NCBI GenBank assembly: GCA_963735025.1
Contig: CAVTJG010000009.1
Coordinates: 744,122-808,121 of the forward strand
Direction: 5' to 3'
DNA from: an uncultured beta proteobacterium
Lineage (GTDB): Bacteria; Pseudomonadota; Gammaproteobacteria; Burkholderiales; SG8-39
DNA length: 64,000 nucleotides
Of this stretch, positions 2,609-60,605 are shown in pieces. Within the stretch, counting starts at the first letter, position 1. Every line of letters starts with the position of its first letter. The notes under the pieces are model-generated. The model was not told the DNA's origin. It saw only the letters and a list, made by a program, of their open reading frames with translations, and searched no databases. The translations under genes were made by a program, and so were the position numbers.

Positions 2609-2941
2609 ATGGAATTGCCCGAAATGATCACACGCCTGCCCGAGGCCGAACTGCCGATTCCTCCGTCCAAGGTGAAAACGCACGTGCTGCCGTCGGACCG
2701 CGGGCAACTCGTCTTCTTTCAGGTCCTGGAGGACGTAGAAATCCCCCCGCATTCGCACAAGGCCCAGTGGGGTACGGTCCTCGAGGGCGAGGTGGAAGTG
2801 ACGATCGGGGGCGAAGCGCGCGTCTACAAGCCTGGCACCACGTACTTCATCCCGAGCGGAGTCGTGCACAGCGCCAAGGCACGTGCCGGCGCGAAGATCA
2901 TGGACCTCTTCGAGGAGCCCGATCGCTACCCGATCAAGTGA
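2609..2941 (+). CDS. cupin domain protein
   Basis: 110-aa ORF with a cupin-type metal motif context (PPHSHKAQWGTVLEGEV ... YFIPSGVVHSA). Confidence 0.75.
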   Translation: MELPEMITRLPEAELPIPPSKVKTHVLPSDRGQLVFFQVLEDVEIPPHSHKAQWGTVLEGEVEVTIGGEARVYKPGTTYFIPSGVVHSAKARAGAKIMDLFEEPDRYPIK

Positions 2942-2982
2942 ACCCGATCAAGTGAGAGACTCGCATGGGGAAGGGGTCGTAG

Positions 2983-16330: not shown

Positions 16331-16390
16331 CAAGGGAGCTCGCTCCCTTGTTCGTTCGGGGGATATGCAGGGGGCGGCTCCCCTTGTTCG
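16331..16390. repeat. two tandem GC-rich hairpin units of the GGGGGATATRCARGGGG...CCCTTGTTCG family
   Basis: caagggagctcgctcccttgttcg (16331-16354) is followed by ttcgggggatatgcagggggcggctccccttgttcg (16355-16390). The core motif is shared with 23654-23694 (reverse orientation) and 60489-60559. Confidence 0.65.
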
Positions 16391-16442
16391 TCAAAAGGCA
16401 TTTTTTGAGGGTCCCCCCGGGGCAGTACCGCAGTCCGACTGA

Positions 16443-19400
16443 ATGCGATCGAGCGATAGTGAGAGGAGTGGTTTAACAGTGGCTGGCGAATTCGATATCG
16501 GGCCGTTGACGTGGGTCAAGGGCGAGATCGACCAAGCCCTCGAGAAGTCGCTCGGGTGCCTGCGCGCCTATGCCGCCAATCCGGCCGAGACGACGCAGCT
16601 GAAGTTCTGTCGCACGCATTTTCACCAGGCGCACGGCGCGCTGCAGATCGTCGGCCTGGACGGGGTGACACGCGTCTCGGAAGAACTCGAGGGCCTGATC
16701 GGCGAGACCGAGAAGTCGGGCGCGCCGCCCAAACCCGAGATGCTCGCCGCCGCCGAGCGAACCTACGAGGCCATTTCGGCTTATCTCGATCAGCTGCTCG
16801 CCGGCGAGCCGAACCAGCCGCTGCTGCTCTTTGCCGTGTACCGGGATCTCGCCGCAGCGCGCGGCAAGGATTCCGCGGATCCGGTCGATCTCTACTATCC
16901 TGATCTTTCGCACCGCCCGCCGCGCCGCGAACGCGCACCGTCGGCGCACACGGGCGACGCGCTGATCCAGCACTATCGCGACGCGCGCGCGCGCTATCAG
17001 CGCGGGCTGCTCAAGCTCCTCAAAAAGGATCCGACCGGAGCCGAAGACATGCGCGCCGCAGTGACGGCGGTCGAGGCGGCGCAAAGCGTGCCCGCGCAGC
17101 GCACATTCTGGTGGGTCGCCCTCGGATTCTTCGATGCGCTGGTCGCGCGTGCGATGCCCGACAACCCGACGCTCATGCGCCTGTGCAATCGCATCGAACA
17201 CCAGCTCAAGCGACTCGTCGAAGGCTCGACCAATGTCGCCGAGCGCTTGACGCGTGAGGCGCTATTCGCCGTGGCGCGCGCCCGGCCGGCAACCGAGCAC
17301 CTCCGGCAAGTCCAGGAGACCTTCGAGCTCGCCGGCTCGATCCCCGGCAGCTTCGAGCTGAAATCGGAATCCGCTGGCCAGTTGCCCGGCGTGCGTGCGA
17401 TGCGCGAGCTGGTCACGCAGGCCAAGACCTCCTGGAACAAGGCCGCATCCGGCCACCAGGGAAGCCTTGCCGCGTTCCGCGATCAGACCGCGCAGCTCGC
17501 CAAGCGTGCGGCCGAATCGGGCGACGATCTGTTGAAGGCGCTCGCCACCGATATGGCGATCACCGCAAAGTGGCTCGGCGACAGCCCCGACAAGGTGACC
17601 GACGCGGTCGCCATGGAAGTGGCCACCGCGTTGCTGCTGGTCGAGAACGCCACCGAGAACTACGCGCGCCTCGGCGATGAATTCAAGCAGCAAGTCGCAT
17701 TGATGCGCGGGCGGCTGCAGGGTGTCATGCAGGGCAAGATGCCCGAAGGCGCCGCGCCGGTGCTGGACGAGATGTCGCGCCGCGCCCAGGAACGCCTGCT
17801 GATGAGCCACGTCGTGGGCGAGATCAACGCGAGCCTGCGGTCGGTCGAGCAGGCGCTCGATGCGTTCTTCCGCGATTCCTCCCAGCGCCCCGAGCTCGTC
17901 GCGCTCGACAAGCCGATGCGTCAGGTGCTGGGCGCGTTGACCATGTTGAACGAGGACCGCGCCGCCGCGGCATTGTCCACGTGCGCGGCCGAGATCCAGC
18001 GCTTCGCCTCGCCGGACTATGCGCCAGCCCAGTCCGACTTCGAGCGAGTGGCCGGCACGCTGTCGGGACTCGGCTTCTATGTCGATTCGTTGCAGCACGG
18101 TAAGACCGATTTCGATGCCTTCATGCTGCCGATCGGCGCGCGCAAGGAAGCGCCTGCCGAAGAAGCGGAGACCGCCCAGGCGAGTGCCAGCGTCGAGGCC
18201 GGTCTTGCGAAGGGCAAGCGCGAAGTCCAGGAGCTCTTCGAGCGGTGGAAGAAAGAGCCTGGCGACGCGGCGCTCAAGGCCAAGCTCGAGGAGAATCTCC
18301 AGGCGTTGCAGAAGGACGCGAGCCTGACTGCGGAAGGCGCGCTCGAATCACGCGTCGCCGAGATGCTCGCGGTGCTCAAGAAAAGCGACGCCAAGACGTT
18401 CGATCCGGTGGCCACGCAGACGCTCGAGGGCATCACACCCGCATCCGCCGAGCCGCCGCCCTCGGCGAAGACCGAGGAACTCGTCAGCGCGAGCGCCGAG
18501 AAGGTCGACGCCGAGCTGCTCGCCGTGTATCTCGAGGAGGCGGGCGAGGTGCTCGCGACCATCGGTGCGAGCGTCGAGCAGGTGCGCGGAGAGCTGCACA
18601 ACATCGAGGAGCTGCGCACCATCCGGCGCGGCTTCCACACATTGAAGGGCAGCGGCCGGATGGTGGGACTGACCCGACTGGGCGAGGCCGCATGGGCGGT
18701 CGAGCAGGTGATGAACAAGTGGCTCGAGGAGGAGAGTCCGGCAACGCCCGATCTTCTGCGGCTCGTCGCCGAGGCGCAGTCGTTCTTCGGCGCCGCCGTC
18801 GAGGACCTCAAGTGCGGCGGAGCCGGACCCGACGAAGCCGCGATCGTCGCGCTCTCGCAGCAGGTGAAGTCCGGCGAACCATTGGGGGAAACCGCGAGTG
18901 CCCAATCGGCACCCGTGTCCGCGCCGGAAGCACCTGTCGAGGTGACCGAAGCACCGGTATTTGAAGAACAGGCTGCCGCCCCGGCAATCGAGGAAGTGGC
19001 GGAAGCGCCGGACACTCCGGTAATCGAGGAAGTGGCGGAAGCGCCGGACACTCCGGCAATCGAGCCACAGGAGTCCGTGCCCTTCGAACTTGCCGAAACG
19101 CTCACCGTGCCGCAAGAGTCAGCGCCAGAGGTCGACTTTCCCGCGTTCGAACTTCCCGGCGAGTCGCCTGCGCCCGCAATCGACCTGCCTGATTTCGATC
19201 TTCCGATTGGCGCACCGGAGGCGGAGGTTCTGCAGCCCGCCGCCGCACCGTCCGACGCACCGCCACCGGCCAAGGAGCCGGCACTTGGACCGATCTCGCT
19301 GGACTTCTCCCTGCCGATGTCGACCCTGAATGCCGAACCGGATGCGCAGCAGACGCCGCCGCCTGCCGAGACTCCGCCGGTCGAGGAACTGTTGCCATCC

Positions 19401-22549: not shown

Positions 22550-23611
22550 CTAGCGCACCGATTCGAGCGGGCGCGTCTCGCCGTGCTTCAGCACCCAGAA
22601 CGCGTCGCTCGACAATCCTCGCGCGGCGAGCGCTGCGCGCAGGCGCTCCGGCGGCTCGTACAGCGACTCGTCAGTGAGATCGTCGAAGGTCCCCCAGTGG
22701 ATCGCGACCGACTGCCGCGCGCCGAGATCGAGATGGATCTGCACGGCTTCCTCGGGATCGACGTGCATGACCCGCATGAACCAGCGCGGAGCGTAGCCGC
22801 CGATCGGGATGGCGGCGAGATCGATCGTGCCGACGCGCGCGGCGATATCGCGGAAGTCGGGCGAGTATCCGGTGTCTCCGGCGAAAAAGAACCGCAGTCC
22901 GGAACCTTCGACGACGAAGCCGCCCCACAACGTCTGGTTGCGGTCCCACGGCGTGCGCGCGCTCCAGTGCTGCACGGGCACAAACCGGATCACGACGCTA
23001 TCGAGGCTGCGTGAGTCCCACCAGTCCATTTCTTCCACGTTCGTGATGCCGAGCGTGGCGAACCAGGGCTTGAGCCCGAGGCCGACGTAGAAGCGTGGCG
23101 GGCCGCCAGCCTGCTTGGCGAGGGCCCGTACCGATGCTTCGTCGAGATGATCGTAGTGGCTGTGCGAGACCAGCACGGCATCGATGTGCGGTAGCTTGGC
23201 GAGCGGAATCGCCGGCTCGACCACGCGCCTCGGCCCCACGCTGGAAAGCGGCGATGCGCGCAGCGAGAACTGCGGGTCGGTGAGGATATTCAGCCCGCCG
23301 ACACGCAGGAGCAACGTCGCATGACCGATCCATGTAACGCTCGGATTTGCGAGCGCGACTGGGTTTGCCTGCTGCTCGACCTCGAATCGATACCCGCCTT
23401 CCGGCTTTTTCGGCAGGCCGTCGCGCATTTGCTCCCACTTCCATTTCCAGAAGCTCCGGCCGCTTTCGTGCGGGTAGTTGTTGCGGAACCCCTCGGGCGT
23501 GTGATGTGGTTTCGAAGGATCGAAATACGGGTTCGACATCGTGCATCCGGCGAGGACGCTCGCCAGCAGAGTTGGCAGGAATCGTACCAGTCGTGTCATT
23601 GGCTGAATCAT
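22550..23611 (-). CDS. MBL-fold metallo-hydrolase lipoprotein (NAPE-PLD-like)
   Basis: ORF 22550..23764, with the likely start at ATG 23611 or 23599. It has a lipobox (LLASVLAGC) and the HxHxDH motif (VLVSHSHYDHLD). Confidence 0.8.
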   Translation of the reverse strand: MIQPMTRLVRFLPTLLASVLAGCTMSNPYFDPSKPHHTPEGFRNNYPHESGRSFWKWKWEQMRDGLPKKPEGGYRFEVEQQANPVALANPSVTWIGHATLLLRVGGLNILTDPQFSLRASPLSSVGPRRVVEPAIPLAKLPHIDAVLVSHSHYDHLDEASVRALAKQAGGPPRFYVGLGLKPWFATLGITNVEEMDWWDSRSLDSVVIRFVPVQHWSARTPWDRNQTLWGGFVVEGSGLRFFFAGDTGYSPDFRDIAARVGTIDLAAIPIGGYAPRWFMRVMHVDPEEAVQIHLDLGARQSVAIHWGTFDDLTDESLYEPPERLRAALAARGLSSDAFWVLKHGETRPLESVR

Positions 23612-23742
23612 GAAGATCGATACGCGCGCTTGGCGCGCTCGTATCGCTCCAGGCTCCGATGGAACAAGGGAGCACACCCCCTTGTATATCCCCCAATCAT
23701 GAAGATCGAAACGCGCGCTTGGCGCGCTCGTATCGCTCCAGG
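23606..23742. repeat. 48-bp direct duplication of the phr 3' end / MBL start junction flanking a 41-bp hairpin insert
   Basis: aatcatgaagatcgaWacgcgcgcttggcgcgctcgtatcgctccagg occurs at 23606-23653 and 23695-23742 (47/48 identical). The spacer 23654-23694 contains cccccttgtatatccccc, the reverse complement of the GGGGGATATACAAGGGGG motif. Confidence 0.85.
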
Positions 23743-25142
23743 GTGAGTTTCCTCGCGACCGCATGATCGACGATCGGCGACGGGTAGTCGCGGCCGATCA
23801 CGCACCCGCATGCGGACTGCTCGGGACCCGACATTTGCCAGGGCGCGTGGATGAATTTGTCGGGGACCCTGGCGAGCTCCGGAAGGTAGTGACGGATGAA
23901 CCTACCGCCTCCATCGAATTTTTCCGATTGCGTCACCGGATTGAAGATCCGGAAATACGGCTGCGCATCGCACCCCGTCGATGCGGCCCATTGCCAGCCG
24001 CCGTTGTTGGCGGCAAGGTCGAAGTCGTTGAGTTGTTCGGCGAAGTACTTTTCGCCCCAGCGCCAGTCCACGAGAAGATCCTTCACGAGGAAGGACGCGA
24101 CCACCATCCGCAAGCGGTTGTGCATGTAGCCGGTGCGGTTGATCTGCCGCATCGCTGCGTCCACCAGGGGATAGCCGGTGCGTGCCTCGCACCATGCGGC
24201 GAACCGCACCGGATCGTTTTCGAACTCGACGTCCTCGAGCTCGTGCTTGAATGCATGCCCGACGACGCGCGGGTGATGATGCAGGATCATGAAATAGAAA
24301 TCCCGCCAGACGAGCTCGGAAAGCCAAGTCTCGGCGCCGCGTCCGCCGATCGCGTGCGCGCGGCCGGCGAGTTCGCGGATCGAGATCGTCCCGAACCGGA
24401 GATGCACCGAAAGATACGACGGTCCGTGCAGCGCAGGATAGTCGCGGCGTTCGTGGTACTTGTCGATCCGCGCGAGAAACGCATCGAACAGCGCACGTGC
24501 GCCGGATATCCCGGTCGGGATCGGAAGATCGGTGAGGTTGGTGCGCCGAAAGCCGAGATCCTCGAGGGCGGGCATCTGCCGTACGCGGGGACGGGCGAGA
24601 CATCCGAGGCGGTCGGCGACGGGATGCGCGGCGAGATCGGCCACCGAAAGGCGCCGCAGCCAGGCGTTCTTGTACGGCGTAAAGACGGAGAACGGCGTGC
24701 CCGTCGCGGTGAGCAGCTCGTCGCGCTCGAACATGACCTGGTCCTTGACGGTCTCGAAGCCGATTCCCTGTTCCTCGAGCGCCTCCTGCACGGCCGCGTC
24801 CCGCGCGCAGGCCGCAGGCTCGTAGTCGCGGTTCGCGTACACCGTTGCGACGCCCAGAGCTGCCGCGAGCCGGGGCACTTCCACGCGCGCCCGGCCGTGG
24901 AGCACAATGAGCCCTCCGCCGCGCTCCGCGAGCGCATCGTCGAGCTCGCGAGCCGCGTGCCAGATGAATTCGACTCGCCGGTCGAAGCGCTCGGGGAGCA
25001 GGTCGAGGATCTCGGTATCGAAGCAGAATGCGCAGTACACCGCGCCGGACGCTTCAAGCGCACGGGACAGGGCGGCGTGGTCGGTCAGGCGCAGATCGCG
25101 TCGGTACCATACCAGGACGGGCTTTCTGGACGTGGACGACAT
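23697..25142 (-). CDS. phrB: deoxyribodipyrimidine photolyase
   Basis: 481-aa ORF with an N-terminal LVWYRRDLRLTDHAAL motif and an FAD-binding C-terminal region (WRDFYF, GYMHNRLRM, NNGGWQW). Confidence 0.9.
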   Translation of the reverse strand: MSSTSRKPVLVWYRRDLRLTDHAALSRALEASGAVYCAFCFDTEILDLLPERFDRRVEFIWHAARELDDALAERGGGLIVLHGRARVEVPRLAAALGVATVYANRDYEPAACARDAAVQEALEEQGIGFETVKDQVMFERDELLTATGTPFSVFTPYKNAWLRRLSVADLAAHPVADRLGCLARPRVRQMPALEDLGFRRTNLTDLPIPTGISGARALFDAFLARIDKYHERRDYPALHGPSYLSVHLRFGTISIRELAGRAHAIGGRGAETWLSELVWRDFYFMILHHHPRVVGHAFKHELEDVEFENDPVRFAAWCEARTGYPLVDAAMRQINRTGYMHNRLRMVVASFLVKDLLVDWRWGEKYFAEQLNDFDLAANNGGWQWAASTGCDAQPYFRIFNPVTQSEKFDGGGRFIRHYLPELARVPDKFIHAPWQMSGPEQSACGCVIGRDYPSPIVDHAVARKLTLERYERAKRAFRSS

Positions 25143-40580: not shown

Positions 40581-41888
40581 CTAGATGAACTTCAGCGCCC
40601 TCGGCAGCCAGAGGGCAAGCGCGGGGAAGAGCAGGAGCAGAAAGACCAGCGCGAAATCCGCGGCGAGAAACGGACCGATGCCCCTGAACATCGTGCCGAG
40701 CGGAACGTCGGGCAGCTGTGCGCGCAGCACGAATATGTTCAGCCCGACCGGGGGCGTGATGAGCCCCATCTCGACCACCACGACCACGAGCATCCCGAAC
40801 CAGACCGGGTCGTAGCCGAGCGTCTGCACGAGCGGCAGGAACACCGGCACTGTCACCACGATCATGCTGAGCGAGTCGAGGAAGCATCCCAGCACGATGT
40901 ACACCATCACGAGGATCAGGATGACGGCCCAGGGCGCCACATCCAGTCCTTTCACCCAGGTCGCGACGCTCACCGGCAGCTGCGTGAGCACCATGAAATA
41001 GCCGAACAGGAACGCGGCCAGCGCGATGAAGAAAAGCGTACCCGTGGTCCACACCGTTTCTGTCAACGCGGCGCCCAGTTCCCGCCACCCGAAGTCGCAG
41101 GTCACGAACGCAATGACGATTGCCGCGAAAGCGCTCACTGCGGCGGCCTCCGTGGGGCTCATGATGCCCGCGTAGATCCCGCCCACCGCGATCGTGAAAA
41201 GCAGCGCCATCTTCCACAGGCTGCGAAGCGCGCGGAGCCGCTCGCTGAGGGGCAAGCCGGGTTCTTTCGGCACGCGCGCGGGCTGCAGGCGCGCGATGAT
41301 CGCGATGGCGACGATGTGCAGCAGCGTGAGCGCGATGCCGGGGAAGAGCGCCGCGGCATACATCTCCGGCACGCTGCGCTCGGAGAACAGCGCGTAGATG
41401 ATCAGGATGATCGACGGCGGGATGAGGATGCCAAGCGTACCTCCCGATGCGACGACGCCGGTCGCGAGACGCAGATCGTACCCGTGACGCTGCATCTCCG
41501 GCACGGCAACGCGCGCGAACGTCGCCGTGGTGGCCAGCGAGGAGCCGCAGATCGCGCCGAAGCCTGCGCACCCGCCGATCGTGCCCATCGCCAGCGCACC
41601 GCGCAGCCCGCTGAAAAGCGAGTTCGCCGCCTGATAGAGCTCGCGCGCCATGCCCGCGCGCACGGCGACCGCGCCCATGAGCACGAAGAGCGGCACGACG
41701 GTGAGGGTGTACTTCTCCGCCATTTCATAGGGAACGCTGCCGACGGCGATCAGCGCGTGTCGCCATCCGTCCACGGCGGCATAGCCGACGAAGCCGACCA
41801 GACCGAGCGCCACCGCGCACGGGATCCGCGCGAGAACGAGGCCGATGAGCGCCGCCAGCCCGAGAAGGCCGATGAGTTGACCGGACAT
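40581..41888 (-). CDS. dctM: TRAP transporter large permease subunit
   Basis: 435-aa polytopic ORF adjacent to the small permease and the binding-protein genes. Confidence 0.9.
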   Translation of the reverse strand: MSGQLIGLLGLAALIGLVLARIPCAVALGLVGFVGYAAVDGWRHALIAVGSVPYEMAEKYTLTVVPLFVLMGAVAVRAGMARELYQAANSLFSGLRGALAMGTIGGCAGFGAICGSSLATTATFARVAVPEMQRHGYDLRLATGVVASGGTLGILIPPSIILIIYALFSERSVPEMYAAALFPGIALTLLHIVAIAIIARLQPARVPKEPGLPLSERLRALRSLWKMALLFTIAVGGIYAGIMSPTEAAAVSAFAAIVIAFVTCDFGWRELGAALTETVWTTGTLFFIALAAFLFGYFMVLTQLPVSVATWVKGLDVAPWAVILILVMVYIVLGCFLDSLSMIVVTVPVFLPLVQTLGYDPVWFGMLVVVVVEMGLITPPVGLNIFVLRAQLPDVPLGTMFRGIGPFLAADFALVFLLLLFPALALWLPRALKFI

Positions 41889-41894
41889 CGAGAG

Positions 41895-42428
41895 TCAGTC
41901 GACGTCTTGGCGAGGCAGCTCGAGCGCGCGAGCGGCACCGCCGCGCAGCACGCGCCAGGCTACCGCAACGATGGCGATTGCCGAGCAGGCAAAACCCACG
42001 GCGATCGGAATCGCCTGCCACCAGCGCGGTAACTGCAGCGTCATCGTGCCTTCGCCATAGCGGTACTTGTCGAGCGCCGGGGGCACGATCTCGACGAGCG
42101 TCACCGCGATGAAGGCGAGCGAGAGGGCGAGGCCGATCAGGCGCAACGCAAACGTGAGGCGCTCCGAGCGGAGCGAATCGACGAGCCCGATGGTGATGTG
42201 CTCGTCGCGCAGGAACACGCCGGGGAGTGCGACGAAGATGCAGACGGCGAGCGCCATCTCCATCATGTCGACGACGCCGAACACCTCGATCTTGAACAGG
42301 GCGCGCGCGAGCACGGCGGTCGTCGTAAGCAGCATCATGAAGACAAGTGCGGCGACGGCTACCCAGCCGAACGGCCGGGCAGCCATCTCGAGGCGCGCGC
42401 GCAATCGATCCGATCGATCGCCGGGCAC
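41895..42428 (-). CDS. dctQ: TRAP transporter small permease subunit
   Basis: 177-aa ORF with four TM segments between the dctP and dctM homologues. Confidence 0.85.
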   Translation of the reverse strand: MPGDRSDRLRARLEMAARPFGWVAVAALVFMMLLTTTAVLARALFKIEVFGVVDMMEMALAVCIFVALPGVFLRDEHITIGLVDSLRSERLTFALRLIGLALSLAFIAVTLVEIVPPALDKYRYGEGTMTLQLPRWWQAIPIAVGFACSAIAIVAVAWRVLRGGAARALELPRQDVD

Positions 42429-42432
42429 GCGA

Positions 42433-43492
42433 CTACTTCCAGAAGGACTTGGATGTCTTATCGGCCTTCGCCGCGCCTTCCTGCATCAGCTTGTAGACAT
42501 TTCCTTGCCGGCAACCCCTTGCCTTCGAGGTCGGCGAGGACGCGCTCGGTGACCGCAGCGCCCGCCGCGCGGAATTTCGCATTCTCCTCGGGGGTCAGGG
42601 TGATGATCTGCGTGCCCGCCTTGATCATTGCATTCTTGCCCGGCGTGTCGATGCTGTCGAAGCGCCGGCCGGCTTCCGCTCCGCCACCCAGCTCTTCCAG
42701 CGCGTCAGTCAGGATCTTCTGGGAGGCCGGACCCAGGGCTTCCCAGGAGCGCTGGTTGATGACGGTGCCGAAGCTCACCACGTAGGCATACAGTTCGGTC
42801 GTGTACTTCGTGACCGGGCCCATGCGGAACGCAATGCCCGCGCCGCCGTAGTCGATGAACGCACCATCGAGCGTGCCCTTCTGCATGTTCTCGACGATCT
42901 CGGGCGACGGAATTCCGACCGGAGTGCCGCCGAGCTGGTTGATGAACTCGCGCACGGCAGGCGACGCGAAACGGATTCGCTGACCCTTCAGGTCCTCGAC
43001 CGTATGGATCGGCTTGGAGGCCATGTTCACGTTGCCAGGCTGGTGAGTGTAAAGCTGCAACACGTGCACGCCCACGTGCTCCTTGTCCAGGATGGCGCGG
43101 ATCTCGGGTTCGTTCAGCACCTTGGAGCCGATTTCCCCGCTGCCGAAGAGGTAGGGCATGTTGGAGATGTCGGTGAGTGGAAACCGGCCCGGCGTGAATC
43201 CATGGACGAACCAGCTGATGTCGGCTTGCCCCGTGCGGGCCAGGTCATACATGCGCGGCGCGGGGCCCATCTGGCCGTTGGGGAAGATCGCAATCTTCAG
43301 CTTTCCGTCGGACTTCTTCGCAACCAGGTCGGCCCATTCCTGCAGGTACTTGGAGTAGGGGTGCTGCGGGACGACGAAGTGCGCGAGCTTCAGCTCCACG
43401 GTCTGCGCGCCCGTGGTCGCGGGGACGCCCACGCCGATCAGCGCGGCGAGTGCAACACCCACGGCTGCACGCGGGATGCGGCATTGCATCAT
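42433..43492 (-). CDS. dctP: TRAP transporter substrate-binding protein with a C-terminal frameshift
   Basis: The intact ORF is 42458..43492, with a signal peptide and LKLAHFVVPQHP. After GKGLPA, an alternative frame gives NVYKLMQEGAAKADKTSKSFWK* ending at TAG 42433-42435, 4 nt from the dctQ start. The break is at the T3 (A3 on the coding strand) run, 42500-42502. Confidence 0.85.
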
Positions 43493-43572: not shown

Positions 43573-44731
43573 TCAGCCGTTTCCGTCCTGGCGCCGCATC
43601 GACCCCGCAACGATCTTGAACTCGAACAGCCGGCACTCGAGCGGCCCATTGAAAAGCGGCGTGCGCTTCGACGCCTTCAGCCCGATCAGCTTCGCTAGCC
43701 GCAGGTCCGCGGTGAGGATGTAGCAGCGCCAGCCGGCGAAGCGCGCCTTCAGCGCGTCGCCGAGCTGCGGATAGAACGAGGCAAGCTCTGCGTCCTCGCC
43801 GACGCGCACGCCGTACGGCGGATTCGTCACCAGCACGCCGACCGGCGCGGGCGCGTCCACTTCCAGCACGTCCGCGCGCTGCAGCGAAACGGCTCCGGAC
43901 AGTCCAGTCTGCTCGAGCGCGGACTGCGCGCTGTCGAGAATGCTCGCATCACGATCCGCGCCGAAAATGGCCGGCTTCCGGACGTCGGTTGCGCGCTCGC
44001 TGGCCGCTGCGCGGAGATTGCGCCACAGGTCTCGCATCGAAATCATGCAATCGCTCGAACGCGAACGTGCGCCGGCTTCCGGGCGCGATGCCCAGCGCGA
44101 TCTGTGCCGCTTCGGCGAGGATCGTGCCGCTCCCGCACATCGGATCGAAGAGCGGCTCGTCCGGGCGCCAGCCGGAGAGGGCGATCAGTCCCGCGGCGAG
44201 ATTTTCGCGTAGTGGCGCCTCGCCGGTCGCGCCGCGCAGCCCGCGCTTCCAGAGCGGCTCGCCCGAGGTGTCGAGGTACAGCGTCACGGTACGCTCGTCG
44301 AGAAAAGCGTGAATGCGGACATCGGGTGCGCGCGTGTCCACGTCCGGTCGGCTGCCGGTATCGGCGCGAAAGCGATCGCACACCGCGTCCTTGATGCGCA
44401 GCGTCACGAAGTCGAGGCTCCTGAGCGGGCTGCGGATCGCGCTGACGTCCACGCGGATCGCGCAGCTGACATCGAACCGCTCCGGCCAGCGGACTGCGTG
44501 CGCCGTGTGGTACACGTCCCGCTCGTTGCGATAGGGTGCCTGCGCGACGCGCAGCAGAATGCGCGAAGCGATGCGGCTCTCCAGATTGGCGCGATAGCAC
44601 ACCGCCAGATCGCCGGCAAAGTGAACGCCGCCTCCGACGGTGTGCGTCGCGCGGGCGCCACAGGCGTCGAGCTCGCTTGCAAGTACTGCCTCGAGCCCGC
44701 GCGGGCAAGTGGCGAACATCGCCAGGGTCAT
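43573..44731 (-). pseudogene. THUMP-domain class I SAM-dependent RNA methyltransferase (RlmL N-half-like), frameshifted (or assembly indel)
   Basis: The upstream piece (start ATG 44731) has a THUMP region and motif I (DPMCGSGTILAEAA). The downstream piece (43573..44046) has NPPY motif IV (LVTNPPYGVR). The frames join near 44032 (FAFERLHDFDA|DLWRNLRAAA). Confidence 0.75.
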
Positions 44732-44757
44732 GGTGTCGAGGCCCGCGCGGCGACTGC

Positions 44758-45759
44758 TCAAAGGGCGATGAGCGGTCCGCCCTCGTTCGAGGACCGCGTC
44801 ACCGCGTCGAGGATGCGAACGTTGTCGAGCAACTGCTCGCGAGTGTAGCGATACGCCGATTTGCCCGCAGCGGCCTTCGCCCACATCTCGAGGTTTGCGC
44901 GCACGGTCTGCGCGGCCGGGAAAGATCGCGACGTGCGTTTGCCCGACGCGTCACTCACCACGAGCTCGCTCGGCAGCTCCTTGTCCACGTTGGCGCTCTC
45001 GCGCGCCTCGGCCCAGCCCTGCGAGCCGAAGACCGTGAGCCGACCGTAGTACGGTGTCGCGGCGAGCGACGAGATCGACGCGGTCGTTCCCGACGCGAAA
45101 TCGAGCCAGATCGACAGGTGATCCTGTCCGGTCGCATTCGGGAGAACGCGGACGGTGCGCGCCCGCACCGCTTTCGGTCGCCCGGCAAACGAGATGAAAA
45201 GGTCGGTGAGATGAACGCCCAGCGCCGTCATTCCGGCAGCAGGCGCATCCTTCGCCCCGACGCGCCAGTTCGACGTTTCCACATGCGCAAAGAGATCGTG
45301 GCTGACGTTCGCTTCCATGTGCAGGATCTGACCCAGAGTTCCGGCGGCGATCAGACGAGCGATCTCTTCCATCGCTGGTTCGAAGCGGCGTTCGTGCCCG
45401 ATGCCCAGCACGATTCCGGCCTTGTCGCACGCGGCAAGCATGCGCTCGGCGCTCGCGGTGGTGAGCGTGAGCGGCTTCTCGCAAAAAACCTGCTTGCCGG
45501 CCCGCGCCGCGGCGATCACCAGCGCCTCGTGCGTGCTGTGCGGCGTCACGATGAGCACCGCGTCGACGCCCGCATCGGCCAGCACGTCGTCGAGGGAATT
45601 CCGCAGAATCAGCCCGTGCTCGCGGGCGAACCCCGCGACGGCCTTCTCGTCATGATCGACCGCGTGGGTGATGTGCAAAACGGCGCTTCCGGCGAGCCGT
45701 TGCACGATGTACTTGCCCCACCAGCCCATTCCGACTACCGCAGCGCGCAATCCGCTCAT
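44758..45759 (-). CDS. Gfo/Idh/MocA family oxidoreductase
   Basis: ORF 44758..45795, with the likely start at ATG 45759. It has a Rossmann N-terminus (LRAAVVGMGWWGKYIV) and an EKPL motif. Confidence 0.85.
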   Translation of the reverse strand: MSGLRAAVVGMGWWGKYIVQRLAGSAVLHITHAVDHDEKAVAGFAREHGLILRNSLDDVLADAGVDAVLIVTPHSTHEALVIAAARAGKQVFCEKPLTLTTASAERMLAACDKAGIVLGIGHERRFEPAMEEIARLIAAGTLGQILHMEANVSHDLFAHVETSNWRVGAKDAPAAGMTALGVHLTDLFISFAGRPKAVRARTVRVLPNATGQDHLSIWLDFASGTTASISSLAATPYYGRLTVFGSQGWAEARESANVDKELPSELVVSDASGKRTSRSFPAAQTVRANLEMWAKAAAGKSAYRYTREQLLDNVRILDAVTRSSNEGGPLIAL

Positions 45760-60041: not shown

Positions 60042-60461
60042 CTAGAACGGCTTCACGACGACGAGTATCACCGCCGCAACGAGGAACAGGACCGGCACCT
60101 CGTTGAACCACCGGAACCAGACGTGCGACTTCGTGTTCCGATCACTCTTGAAATTCTTCATGAGCTTGCCGCACCACAGGTGGTAGACGACGAGCGCCGC
60201 CACCACCGCCAGCTTTGCGTGTAGCCAGCCGCCCGCGAAGCCGTAGCCTAGCCACAGCCAGGTGCCGAAGACGATCGTCAGCACCGCGCTCGGCGCCATG
60301 ATGCCGAAATAGAGCTTGCGCTCCATGATCTTGAAGCGCTCGTTTCCCGCCTTCTCCGTGGGATCGATCATCGCGTGGTAGACGAACAGGCGCGGGAGAT
60401 AGAAGAGGCCGGCGAACCAAGTGACCATGAAGATGATGTGCAGGGCTTTTATCCAGAGCAT
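60042..60461 (-). CDS. hemJ: protoporphyrinogen IX oxidase HemJ (UPF0093 family)
   Basis: ORF 60042..60545. The family-typical N-terminus (MLWIKALHIIFMVTWFAGLFYLPRLFVYH) starts at ATG 60461. The upstream extension reads through a repeat insert. Confidence 0.85.
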   Translation of the reverse strand: MLWIKALHIIFMVTWFAGLFYLPRLFVYHAMIDPTEKAGNERFKIMERKLYFGIMAPSAVLTIVFGTWLWLGYGFAGGWLHAKLAVVAALVVYHLWCGKLMKNFKSDRNTKSHVWFRWFNEVPVLFLVAAVILVVVKPF

Positions 60462-60605
60462 GGTGCTATATCCATCGACGACCACCTGATTTGGGGGATA
60501 TACAAGGGGCGGGAAGGGGTGAGGGGGCCCCTTCCCTTCCCCCATAGCCCCTTTGTTCGATTGTGACCATGAAGATGACGTGCAGGGCTTTTATCCAGAG
60601 CATGG
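60421..60605. repeat. 43-bp direct duplication of the hemJ start junction flanking a 99-bp hairpin insert
   Basis: gtgaccatgaagatgaYgtgcagggcttttatccagagcatgg occurs at 60421-60463 and 60563-60605 (42/43 identical). The spacer 60464-60562 has ttgggggatatacaagggg, a nested stem (GGGAAGGGG 60511-60519 / CCCCTTCCC 60528-60536) and cccctttgttcg. Confidence 0.85.

Follow-up and report, generated by a model that had tools for sequence, protein, structure and literature searches.

Mycobacterial interspersed repetitive units (MIRUs) insert at start codons and carry a coupled open reading frame (ORF) at a spacing of −4 (Supply et al. 1997, via PMC12548453). Clusters of REPINs, which are built from repetitive extragenic palindromes (REPs), are ordered in tandem and their units include flanking DNA; the mechanism of their formation is unknown (Bertels & Rainey 2011, PMC3116915). 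The insertion sequences IS1549 and IS1634 produce direct repeats of 8-514 bp, for which there is no mechanistic model (PMC2266710). Here, we analysed a 64-kb stretch of DNA from an uncultured beta proteobacterium (contig CAVTJG010000009.1; 64,000 nt, called the window from here on), in which a 41-nt hairpin element, Y, lies between two copies of a 48-nt repeat, X, at the junction of the photolyase gene phr and the gene of a metallo-beta-lactamase (MBL)-fold lipoprotein. The finding is real and combines known kinds of systems: REP elements and miniature inverted-repeat transposable elements (MITEs), MIRU-like coupling units, and insertions with long duplications.

A repeat search of positions 23000-24400 returned X at 23606-23653 and 23695-23742, 47/48 identical (T/A at a single position), and so confirmed the 48-bp repeat around a 41-bp insert described in the initial annotation. 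The copies start 89 nt apart, and the 48-nt family has only these two members. The spacer between them (23654-23694) is Y, and its 41-mer occurs once within the window. On the minus strand, the order is ...CCTGGAGCGATACGAGCGCGCCAAGCGCGCGTTTCGATCTTCATGATT (copy A), GGGGGATATACAAGGGGGTGTGCTCCCTTGTTCCATCGGAG (Y), CCTGGAGCG...GTATCGATCTTCATGATT (copy B), and then CAGCCAATGACACGA... The features of the junction are the following:

23697..25142, minus strand: phr, deoxyribodipyrimidine photolyase, 481 aa (translation; Pfam DNA_photolyase and FAD_binding_7)
23695..23742, minus strand: X copy A, the genuine phr 3' end, ending ..TCTTCATGATT; TGA at 23699-23697, with the overlapping ATG 23700-23698 that opens the bridging ORF
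23654..23694, minus strand: Y, a 41-nt copy of the repeat family; motif GGGGGATATACAAGGGG at 23694-23678, hairpin ACAAGGGGG/TGTG/CTCCCTTGT at 23685-23664, tail TCCATCGGAG
23606..23653, minus strand: X copy B, second version of the phr 3' end (47/48), supplying the C-terminal half of the bridging ORF in the native phr frame
23608..23700, minus strand: bridging ORF, 30 codons, MIGGYTRGCAPLFHRSLERYERAKRAYRSS and stop; ATGA overlaps join it to the phr stop (start of the ORF) and to ATG 23611 (end)
22550..23611, minus strand: MBL-fold lipoprotein gene, Lactamase_B_2 (Pfam), signal peptide with lipobox (LAGC); opens MIQPMTRLVRFLPTLLASVLAGC...

Translation bore out that copy A is the true end of phr and that copy B repeats its codons. 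The gene ends in ...LERYERAKRAFRSS, with the stop at 23699-23697, and its last 14 codons, the stop, and 2 further nt make up copy A; the phr protein on a public 2.29-Mb contig (P0270) is 100% identical to that of the window. Copy B encodes ...LERYERAKRAYRSS and a stop, with Tyr replacing Phe; its TAT (Tyr) codon matches the phr ends of relatives, and its TGA (23610-23608) overlaps ATG 23611-23609. Both genes flanking Y are intact, and the same holds for the genes at the second site in the window, as first proposed.

The proposed MBL start at ATG 23611 stands as an ATGA overlap, but it is uncertain as the actual start, since relatives use the homologue of ATG 23599. The gene may begin at ATG 23611 or, more probably, at ATG 23599-23597, which is homologous to the start of the relatives (M[VL]RFLP). 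The public annotation of the source genome (P0258) sets the start later still, at MSNPYF (329 aa), losing the signal peptide and the lipobox. In relatives, other gene callers push the start into the repeat (P0259/P0265, ..REARVSIFMIGANVRR..). The start prediction of this gene is evidently confused by the repeat unit.

Since the period of 89 nt is 2 mod 3 and the unit is stop-free, the ATG overlapping the phr stop opens a 30-codon ORF. It starts within the phr TCATGA, crosses Y, and reads copy B in the native phr frame. Related loci (given below by labels such as L205) have comparable frames. L205 contains two 30-codon ORFs in series (phr, ATGA, ORF, GTGA, ORF, ATGA, MBL), the second starting with GTG instead of ATG and so keeping its start function, and L208 retains a 30-codon ORF although no coupled gene follows. 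The ORFs of L016, L117, and L118 open at an ATGA, TGATG, or GTGA and close with the original stop beside the downstream start. Those of L062 and hemJ (the second site in the window) open at the duplicated start codon, and their stop lies 5 nt ahead of the true ATG or 1-3 nt past it. The periods of the forward coupled units (89, 89, 89, 110, 119, and 110) are all 2 mod 3; four of these six are independent events, which gives p ~0.012. From the reading frames, we infer that the bridging ORF is translated and would couple phr to the MBL gene.

This layout resembles MIRUs in several respects. Both are short units between co-oriented genes, the unit ORF overlaps the stop and start of the neighbours so that coupling is kept, and both form tandem arrays of variable copy number, as in L205 and L092 here. 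The MIRU-like arrangement is present at phr, L205, L016, L117, L118, and L062, but the host is a member of the Burkholderiales rather than a mycobacterium. The betaproteobacterial family is unrelated in sequence and built on a strong hairpin, its unit consists partly of the duplicated flanking gene (19-105 nt), and its copies also lie antisense and outside operon junctions. The unit is an analogue of MIRUs and not a member.

The second site in the window, at hemJ, has the same architecture:

60421..60605, no strand assigned: hemJ sister site, with X at 60421-60463 and 60563-60605 (42/43) and Y at 60464-60562 (99 nt)
60466-60603, minus strand: hemJ bridging ORF

Here, the motif (60493-60509) is on the plus strand, antisense to the genes, X consists of CC and the first 13.7 hemJ codons, and Y reads ..CCTGATTTGGGGG. 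We reached relatives through the upstream ABC-2 permease, which has a 100% match on the 2.29-Mb public contig and close relatives elsewhere. L204 (~97% nucleotide identity, same synteny) and L203 (GCA_011391185.1) contain a single X and no Y, with the sequence ...TAGCCATGCTCTGG...ATGGTCAC up to the insertion point and TTGGTTCGCC after it. The gain of the window over this empty site is exactly 142 nt (99 of Y and 43 of X), and the junctions are unambiguous. At hemJ, there was an insertion with a long target duplication. The Logan contig L200 (937 nt, identical to the window) ends exactly at the end of X, the point at which an assembly graph has to branch if X occurs twice. The comparison with empty sites foreseen in the initial annotation was clean at hemJ, in both L204 and L203, but gave no clean empty site at phr.

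To compare other copies of the family, we aligned the 130-250 nt to the left of each motif copy with the same span to its right and took the 99th percentile of a non-cognate null as threshold. X-Y-X exceeded it in 8 of the 78 motif copies (MITE copies and REP arrays left out). At least seven genomes have the layout at other gene ends, and Pfam confirmed the flanking genes. The eight loci are:

Window phr: X 48 nt, Y 41 nt; photolyase 3' end, then the MBL gene
Window hemJ: X 43 nt, Y 99 nt; motif antisense, X taken from the 5' end of hemJ
L019: X 64 nt (100%), Y 47 nt; cupin 3' end and 17 nt
L092: X in three copies, 145-nt unit, Y 40 nt; enolase 3' end
L016: X 48 nt (46/48), Y 62 nt; acyl-CoA dehydrogenase, then LOG
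L117: X 44 nt (40/44), Y 75 nt; IscS, then IscU
L118: X 45 nt (37/45), Y 65 nt; SDR, then PP-loop ATPase (TtcA-like)
L062: X 19 nt, Y 72 nt; ThiE stop / HemL start, antisense orientation

Six of these loci lie in other genomes and so support the claim that duplication and motif go together and that chance is not the explanation. A decayed copy in L079 may represent a ninth case. A 21-nt duplication in L093 was dropped, as it consists of two tandem MITEs, and a protein-level search for older duplications yielded no further loci. In L092, copies 1 and 2 are identical over 105 nt, and copy 3 differs at 17/78 X positions. The MAG JAJDOG01 contains two duplications whose copies are 100% identical.

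The duplication lengths are 19, 43, 44, 45, 48, 48, 64, and 78-105 nt. The initial annotation had asked whether they cluster near 43-48 bp: the mode is near 45, but the cluster is not tight. The right X copy begins 8-10 nt past CCCTTGT (6 nt at hemJ), and it is the X end abutting the left end of Y (on the motif strand) that falls on or close to a stop or start codon. Therefore, a motif in sense goes with an X taken from the 3' end of the upstream gene and an antisense motif with an X taken from the 5' end of the downstream gene. The initial annotation had also asked whether every copy lies at a stop/start junction; those at 16331-16392, L019, and L208 are not at coupled junctions. Stop-codon proximity was seen in 11/37 elements vs. 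17/588 random positions, a comparison that was set aside, as random intergenic positions would be the fair control.

Long variable target duplications (19-105 nt here) are the feature shared with IS1634 and IS1549. These are autonomous elements of 1.5-2 kb in Mycoplasma and Mycobacterium, with a DDE transposase and terminal inverted repeats, whereas the inserts here measure 40-99 nt and lack inverted termini. No IS1634-type transposase was found among the window ORFs scanned, a scan confined to the window. The literature searched contained neither the motif string nor a report of bacterial MITEs with long duplications.

Chance is excluded as the origin of the two window sites, because the Y 41-mer is unique, the motif occurs three times vs. 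0.00 expected, and both long repeats bracket it: the 64-kb window has only two high-identity non-tandem direct repeats of at least 40 nt. We also looked for duplications without the motif, which could have been generic noise, in 1.28 Mb, most of it sequence picked for carrying the motif. There, every X-Y-X structure that was neither tandem nor REP, with an X no shorter than 30 nt and no less than 90% identical, surrounded the motif, and the remainder were true tandem repeats. In this sequence, the refuting condition set by the initial annotation was answered in the negative.

The family to which Y belongs is marked by the 17-nt motif GGGGGATATRCARGGGG. Scanned against one genome per species, it marks at least 116 loci across genome contigs, mostly from metagenome-assembled genomes (MAGs) of Betaproteobacteria/Burkholderiales among the matches listed. 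In a motif-anchored alignment, the family core is GGGGGATATACAAGGGG, 3-12 variable nt, and then CCCCTTGTTCG, with the hairpin CAAGGGG/CCCCTTG. Compensatory changes maintain the hairpin: its first inner pair reads G-C in 26 cases and A-T in 8, and the inner stem averages 0.98 pairs, vs. 0.48 in a null of non-cognate halves. The RNA fold of the window Y at phr has a 9-bp stem (−17.3 kcal/mol). The core is stop-free in all six frames, and so are 11% of shuffles. Y has a defined right end and a left arm that varies from 0 to 33 nt, and terminal inverted repeats are absent from both the 41-nt copy at phr and the 99-nt copy at hemJ. Two tail subfamilies were found among the Y copies, TCGATCGG.. and TCGTCAAYCA. 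The aligned family copies are single hairpins or direct dimers, and none is an inverted doublet.

The core occurs in four contexts: a ~110-nt MITE, composite REP arrays, direct dimers at conserved intergenic positions, and solitary partial units, as at phr. The ~110-nt MITE of the same MAGs has inverted termini GGGAAnCnCTGAnCAAG and a TA duplication, and the family hairpin overlaps its right terminus. Its 29 listed copies, in L004-L116 (e.g., L065 and L093), often lie directly after stop codons and are occasionally tandem (L093, L075). No full-length insertion sequence with these termini was found in 1.2 Mb of loci. Y shares the hairpin and CCCCTTGTTC with the right terminal inverted repeat region of the MITE (GGGAAnCnCTGAnCAAG), and both are non-autonomous and multicopy, a likeness that extends to MITEs such as Correia. 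The full MITE has both matching inverted termini and a fixed short duplication (TA); Y has neither and makes duplications of 19-105 nt instead.

In some MAGs, the motif stands alongside GTAGGAGCGG-type REPs in composite arrays. L058, L081, L018, L096, and L088 (MAGs JALHMS01 and LNEE01) are dense arrays in which the motif is followed by GGTACGCCCTGCGGCC..GGCCCGAGAGGCGGCCATGGGCCGCTCCTACAA, which are Pseudomonas-like GTAGGAGCGG REPs, with up to 6 motif copies per 8 kb and periods of ~110-290 nt. The family fits the description of REPs as extragenic, multicopy imperfect palindromes of 20-60 nt (3 in 64 kb, many per MAG). Like REPs and REPINs, its members are high-copy short extragenic palindromes with a conserved 5' extension, whose cluster units include flanks. 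In contrast to REPINs, each is a single hairpin rather than an inverted REP doublet, the flanks are coding gene ends that leave the genes intact, and the one-unit X-Y-X dominates. No REP-associated tyrosine transposase (RAYT) was found among the ~45 window ORFs scanned by Pfam, the scan being confined to the window. Taken together, Y is a non-autonomous REP/MITE-like hairpin element, abundant in an uncultured Burkholderiales clade.

A third family copy in the window is a direct dimer:

16331..16392, plus strand: dimer of hairpin units, CAAGGGAGCTCGCTCCCTTG then GGGGGATATGCAGGGGGCGGCTCCCCTTGTTCG; intergenic, no flanking duplication

It lies 50 nt upstream of a gene for a 2026-aa ChpA/FimL-like protein, with a fold z-score of −3.0, and an orthologous dimer occupies the same position in another MAG (L064, 2118-2190). 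Comparable dimers, with TTCGTACGAA and a T-rich stretch behind them, are found repeatedly at orthologous sites of several MAGs, and for this reason the dimer form may have a host function.

The identical 17-mer and hairpin (GGGGGATATACAAGGGGGA..TCCCCCTTGTAAGAA) were also seen in gut Clostridia/Oscillospiraceae contigs (L007, L044, L059, L070, L083, and L115), always preceded by a second hairpin (..CACCAGTC....GACTGGTGA) and adjoining a convergent gene end. This element had no Rfam match and may be an unrelated conserved element or a case of remarkable convergence. Y itself matched no Rfam family, and a scan found no terminator-like or promoter-like signal in it and no T-run after the hairpin. 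Neither the window nor the loci searched contained a donor copy of Y or of its arms. The motif is nearly absent from viral contigs (1 match), and a phage link was set aside as unlikely on that single match. No tRNA genes were found as integration targets.

The initial annotation saw at phr an insertion into an ancestral phr-MBL pair with overlapping stop and start. The insertion is not recent, as orthologous elements are present in L205 and L208 and the 47/48 identity reflects concerted evolution. The ancestral overlap is unproven: the element is orthologous in L208, which has dctPQM there, and phr and MBL may or may not have been neighbours when it was inserted. We reached the relatives of phr and MBL through cluster members, after exact-protein look-ups of MBL, phr, and AA_synth had matched nothing. 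L205 and L206 (MBL MIQPMARMVRS...) have X-Y-X-Y-X between phr and MBL, in 89-nt units. In L208, whose phr is 83% identical (C-terminus ..KRAYRSS), the phr stop is followed by ACA, GGGGATATACAAGGGGATGTTTCCCCTTGTTCGATTGGG, and a 47-nt segment whose start falls on the same X boundary and whose similarity to X is significant (p=0.002, ~60% identical); dctP, dctQ, and dctM come next. The orthologous Y shares the X boundary, the tail (TCGAT[TC]GGG vs. TCCATCGGAG), and similar loops, which indicates a single ancient event at phr.

Some substitutions are private to a lineage and common to all its X copies, such as CCAGGCGCACG, carried by the three copies of L205, and CCAAGCGCGCG, carried by the two of the window. 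Hence, the X copies have been homogenised, and their 47/48 identity is uninformative on age. The X+Y unit seems to amplify like a minisatellite (X-Y-X-Y-X in L205, L092) and Y can be lost, as in L121; the second X decays where no coupled gene follows (L208). L121 and L002 have phr and then MBL with an ATGA junction and no Y, together with 36 extra nt that start GGAGCGA-ACG like X; the similarity of this segment to X is weak in L121 (p=0.03). Close MBL relatives (L001, L003) mostly have dctPQM upstream of MBL, and a test for X remnants upstream of MBL in these dctM-MBL lineages was not significant. Judged by these alignments, the phr instance is an old, homogenised, MIRU-like intercistronic unit, and not one freshly inserted where phr and MBL overlapped.

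In the window, dctPQM lies at 40581-43492 (minus strand), 17 kb from phr-MBL. Relatives L208, L003, and L001 show the orders phr-dctP-dctQ-dctM and dctM-MBL, and in the window, L205, and L121, phr abuts MBL. A rearrangement has taken place next to the repeat unit.

On our reading, which we consider probable though by no means secure, a REP/MITE-like Y entered behind the phr stop and duplicated 48 nt, and a relay ORF kept the operon coupled. Y would have arrived just behind the stop codon, and duplication of 48 nt of target would have turned the junction into X-Y-X; at phr, insertion and duplication were probably one event. On the left, the photolyase C-terminus and its stop would stay intact, and on the right a full X copy would precede the downstream gene. 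Ribosomes would be relayed from phr to the 30-codon ORF and on to the MBL gene, as proposed for MIRUs. The insertion would then be nearly neutral for the operon and hence persist. Afterwards, X+Y would amplify, the X copies would homogenise, an uncoupled second X would decay, and Y would sometimes be lost. The enzymology could involve long staggered cuts, as with IS1634/IS1549, or copy-choice from a defined right end. Gene boundaries, locally AT-rich in a genome of 65% GC, may provide a target feature.

Several observations weigh against this account. No transposase, reverse transcriptase, or integrase was found among the ~45/60 window ORFs scanned by Pfam, which are housekeeping genes. The absence of inverted termini together with the heterogeneous left arm (0-33 nt) means that a classical cut-and-paste MITE does not fit, and the related full MITE makes TA duplications only. 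The duplication accompanies only ~10% of copies, and the comparison data are all MAG/metagenome contigs chosen for the motif. At phr, a clean empty site was found in none of the relatives: L001, L003, and L120-L124 have other upstream genes, L121/L002 are unclean (36 unexplained nt), L205 is filled and amplified, and L208 is filled with dctPQM downstream. Moreover, the X copies of L016, L117, L118, and L092 differ at 33 positions, 26 of them third codon positions, and 4 of the 28 changed codons in these loci alter the amino acid, vs. ~75% if the changes were random. So synonymous a pattern is not what simple neutral decay of the second copy would give; it calls for selection on that copy or for recombination with orthologous alleles. 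If the exchange was with orthologous alleles free of the insertion, both the synonymous divergence and the L092 mosaic (X copies identical over their first 23 nt and diverged beyond) would be accounted for. Selection alone does not account for a breakpoint that is always at a stop or start codon.

We weighed insertion with concurrent duplication against explanations that separate the two steps. The hairpin could have inserted without a long duplication and then provoked, by slippage or unequal exchange, a tandem duplication of element and flank. Such two-step growth would resemble that of REPIN clusters, of which 16 including flanks are documented in Pseudomonas fluorescens SBW25 (PMC3116915), and it suits the multi-unit arrays of L205 (X-Y-X-Y-X) and L092, the homogenisation of X copies within lineages, and the REP-array loci of Bin_40_2, which show a like periodicity around the motif. 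A tandem duplication of 14 nt at a gene end (2928-2955 in the window) also occurred without the motif. We nevertheless regard this course as doubtful. A tandem duplication of X+Y yields X-Y-X-Y, not X-Y-X followed by unrelated sequence, and the eight independent loci all ended up as X-Y-X, the distance from hairpin to right X being fixed. At hemJ, the intermediate A-X-Y-B breaks the gene unless two more steps are invoked, and the ~97% relative shows the empty state only.

The defined right end of Y, its truncated left arms, and the TGATT shared with the target suggest, as a hypothesis, copying from the right end. In the broader form of this idea, which we think unlikely, the family would spread by a process not yet described in bacteria: copying of a hairpin element would begin at its 3' end, and the copy would be attached at a nick in the target (like a short interspersed nuclear element, or by template switching), with left ends truncated to varying degrees, one breakpoint directed to stop/start codons, and duplications of 17-105 nt. 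Such an insertion would insulate itself, a relay ORF preserving operon expression. Copy-choice or retroposition proper, with Y copied from the right (3') end of another copy or of a transcript, a variably shortened left end, microhomology where the left end joins the target, and the nick spacing setting the duplication, strikes us as quite unlikely. The ends of Y agree with it (tails of 8-10 nt, 6 at hemJ, past CCCTTGT; left arms of 0-33 nt), as do the TGATT common to the phr target and the element, a right end approximately where a hairpin-terminated transcript would end, the variable duplications of 19-105 nt, and the lack of terminal inverted repeats. Against these stand the lack of a reverse transcriptase among the ~45 window ORFs scanned, of a donor copy identical to Y in the window and loci, and of a T-run or terminator call after the hairpin, as well as the absence of microhomology at both hemJ junctions. 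We know of no precedent for such retroposition in bacteria.

That the X-Y-X or its 30-codon ORF was selected –as a small protein or as a coupling spacer– and is not a tolerated selfish insertion seems most improbable to us. The window, L205 (twice), and L208 all retain the frame and the 30-codon length, the last despite an X' of only ~60% identity, second X copies differ mainly at synonymous sites, and the Y core is strongly conserved between orthologous sites. But two different frames of Y are in use (GGYTRG or GDIQGG), and elsewhere the opposite strand is read, so there is no common peptide; L121 lost Y yet kept the genes, and close relatives carry an empty hemJ site. Scarcely credible, finally, is an artefact of assembly or the trace of another system, although X-Y-X resembles repeat-spacer-repeat and attL-island-attR, and an A in the downstream copy stands against T or G in the upstream one at both window sites, superficially like a diversity-generating retroelement. 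The structure recurs in independent assemblies from different assemblers, with point differences between copies, and the Logan contig breaks at the end of X. A diversity-generating retroelement was ruled out, with no reverse transcriptase among the window ORFs scanned and differences in L016, L117, L118, and L092 that involve all bases and third positions. CRISPR-like integration was likewise discarded, as the spacers all share the motif and measure 40-99 nt and no cas genes were found among the ORFs scanned, and so were att sites, as X differs at every site and contains no site-specific recombination core.

Other irregularities of the window were observed besides the family copies. The duplication at 2928-2955 (plus strand) is a perfect 14-nt tandem of ACCCGATCAAGTGA (two copies) without the motif; it comprises the last 11 nt and the stop of a cupin gene (2609-2941), a gene end like X and far smaller. 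An in-frame 36-nt tandem repeat (2.3 copies, 95%) lies at 18966-19064 (plus strand) within the gene for the 2026-aa ChpA/FimL-like protein. An RlmL/RMKL-like methyltransferase gene at 43573-44884 (minus strand) is broken into two overlapping ORFs, 43949-44884 (THUMP and profile positions 1-70) and 43573-44046 (profile positions 57-195), possibly by a frameshift or a sequencing error.

At the genome level, a small repeat can colonise the overlapping stop/start junctions of a compact genome and break neither gene, as the gene end is duplicated and an open relay frame is supplied. It represents a betaproteobacterial counterpart to MIRUs. Its empty site, young insertions, amplified arrays, and decayed copies form a natural series for tracing the origin of long variable target duplications, which are likewise unexplained for IS1634/IS1549 and REPIN clusters. 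Besides, the units create loci that resemble variable-number tandem repeats and mislead gene callers: the public annotation of the MBL lipoprotein is truncated, and other callers extend it.

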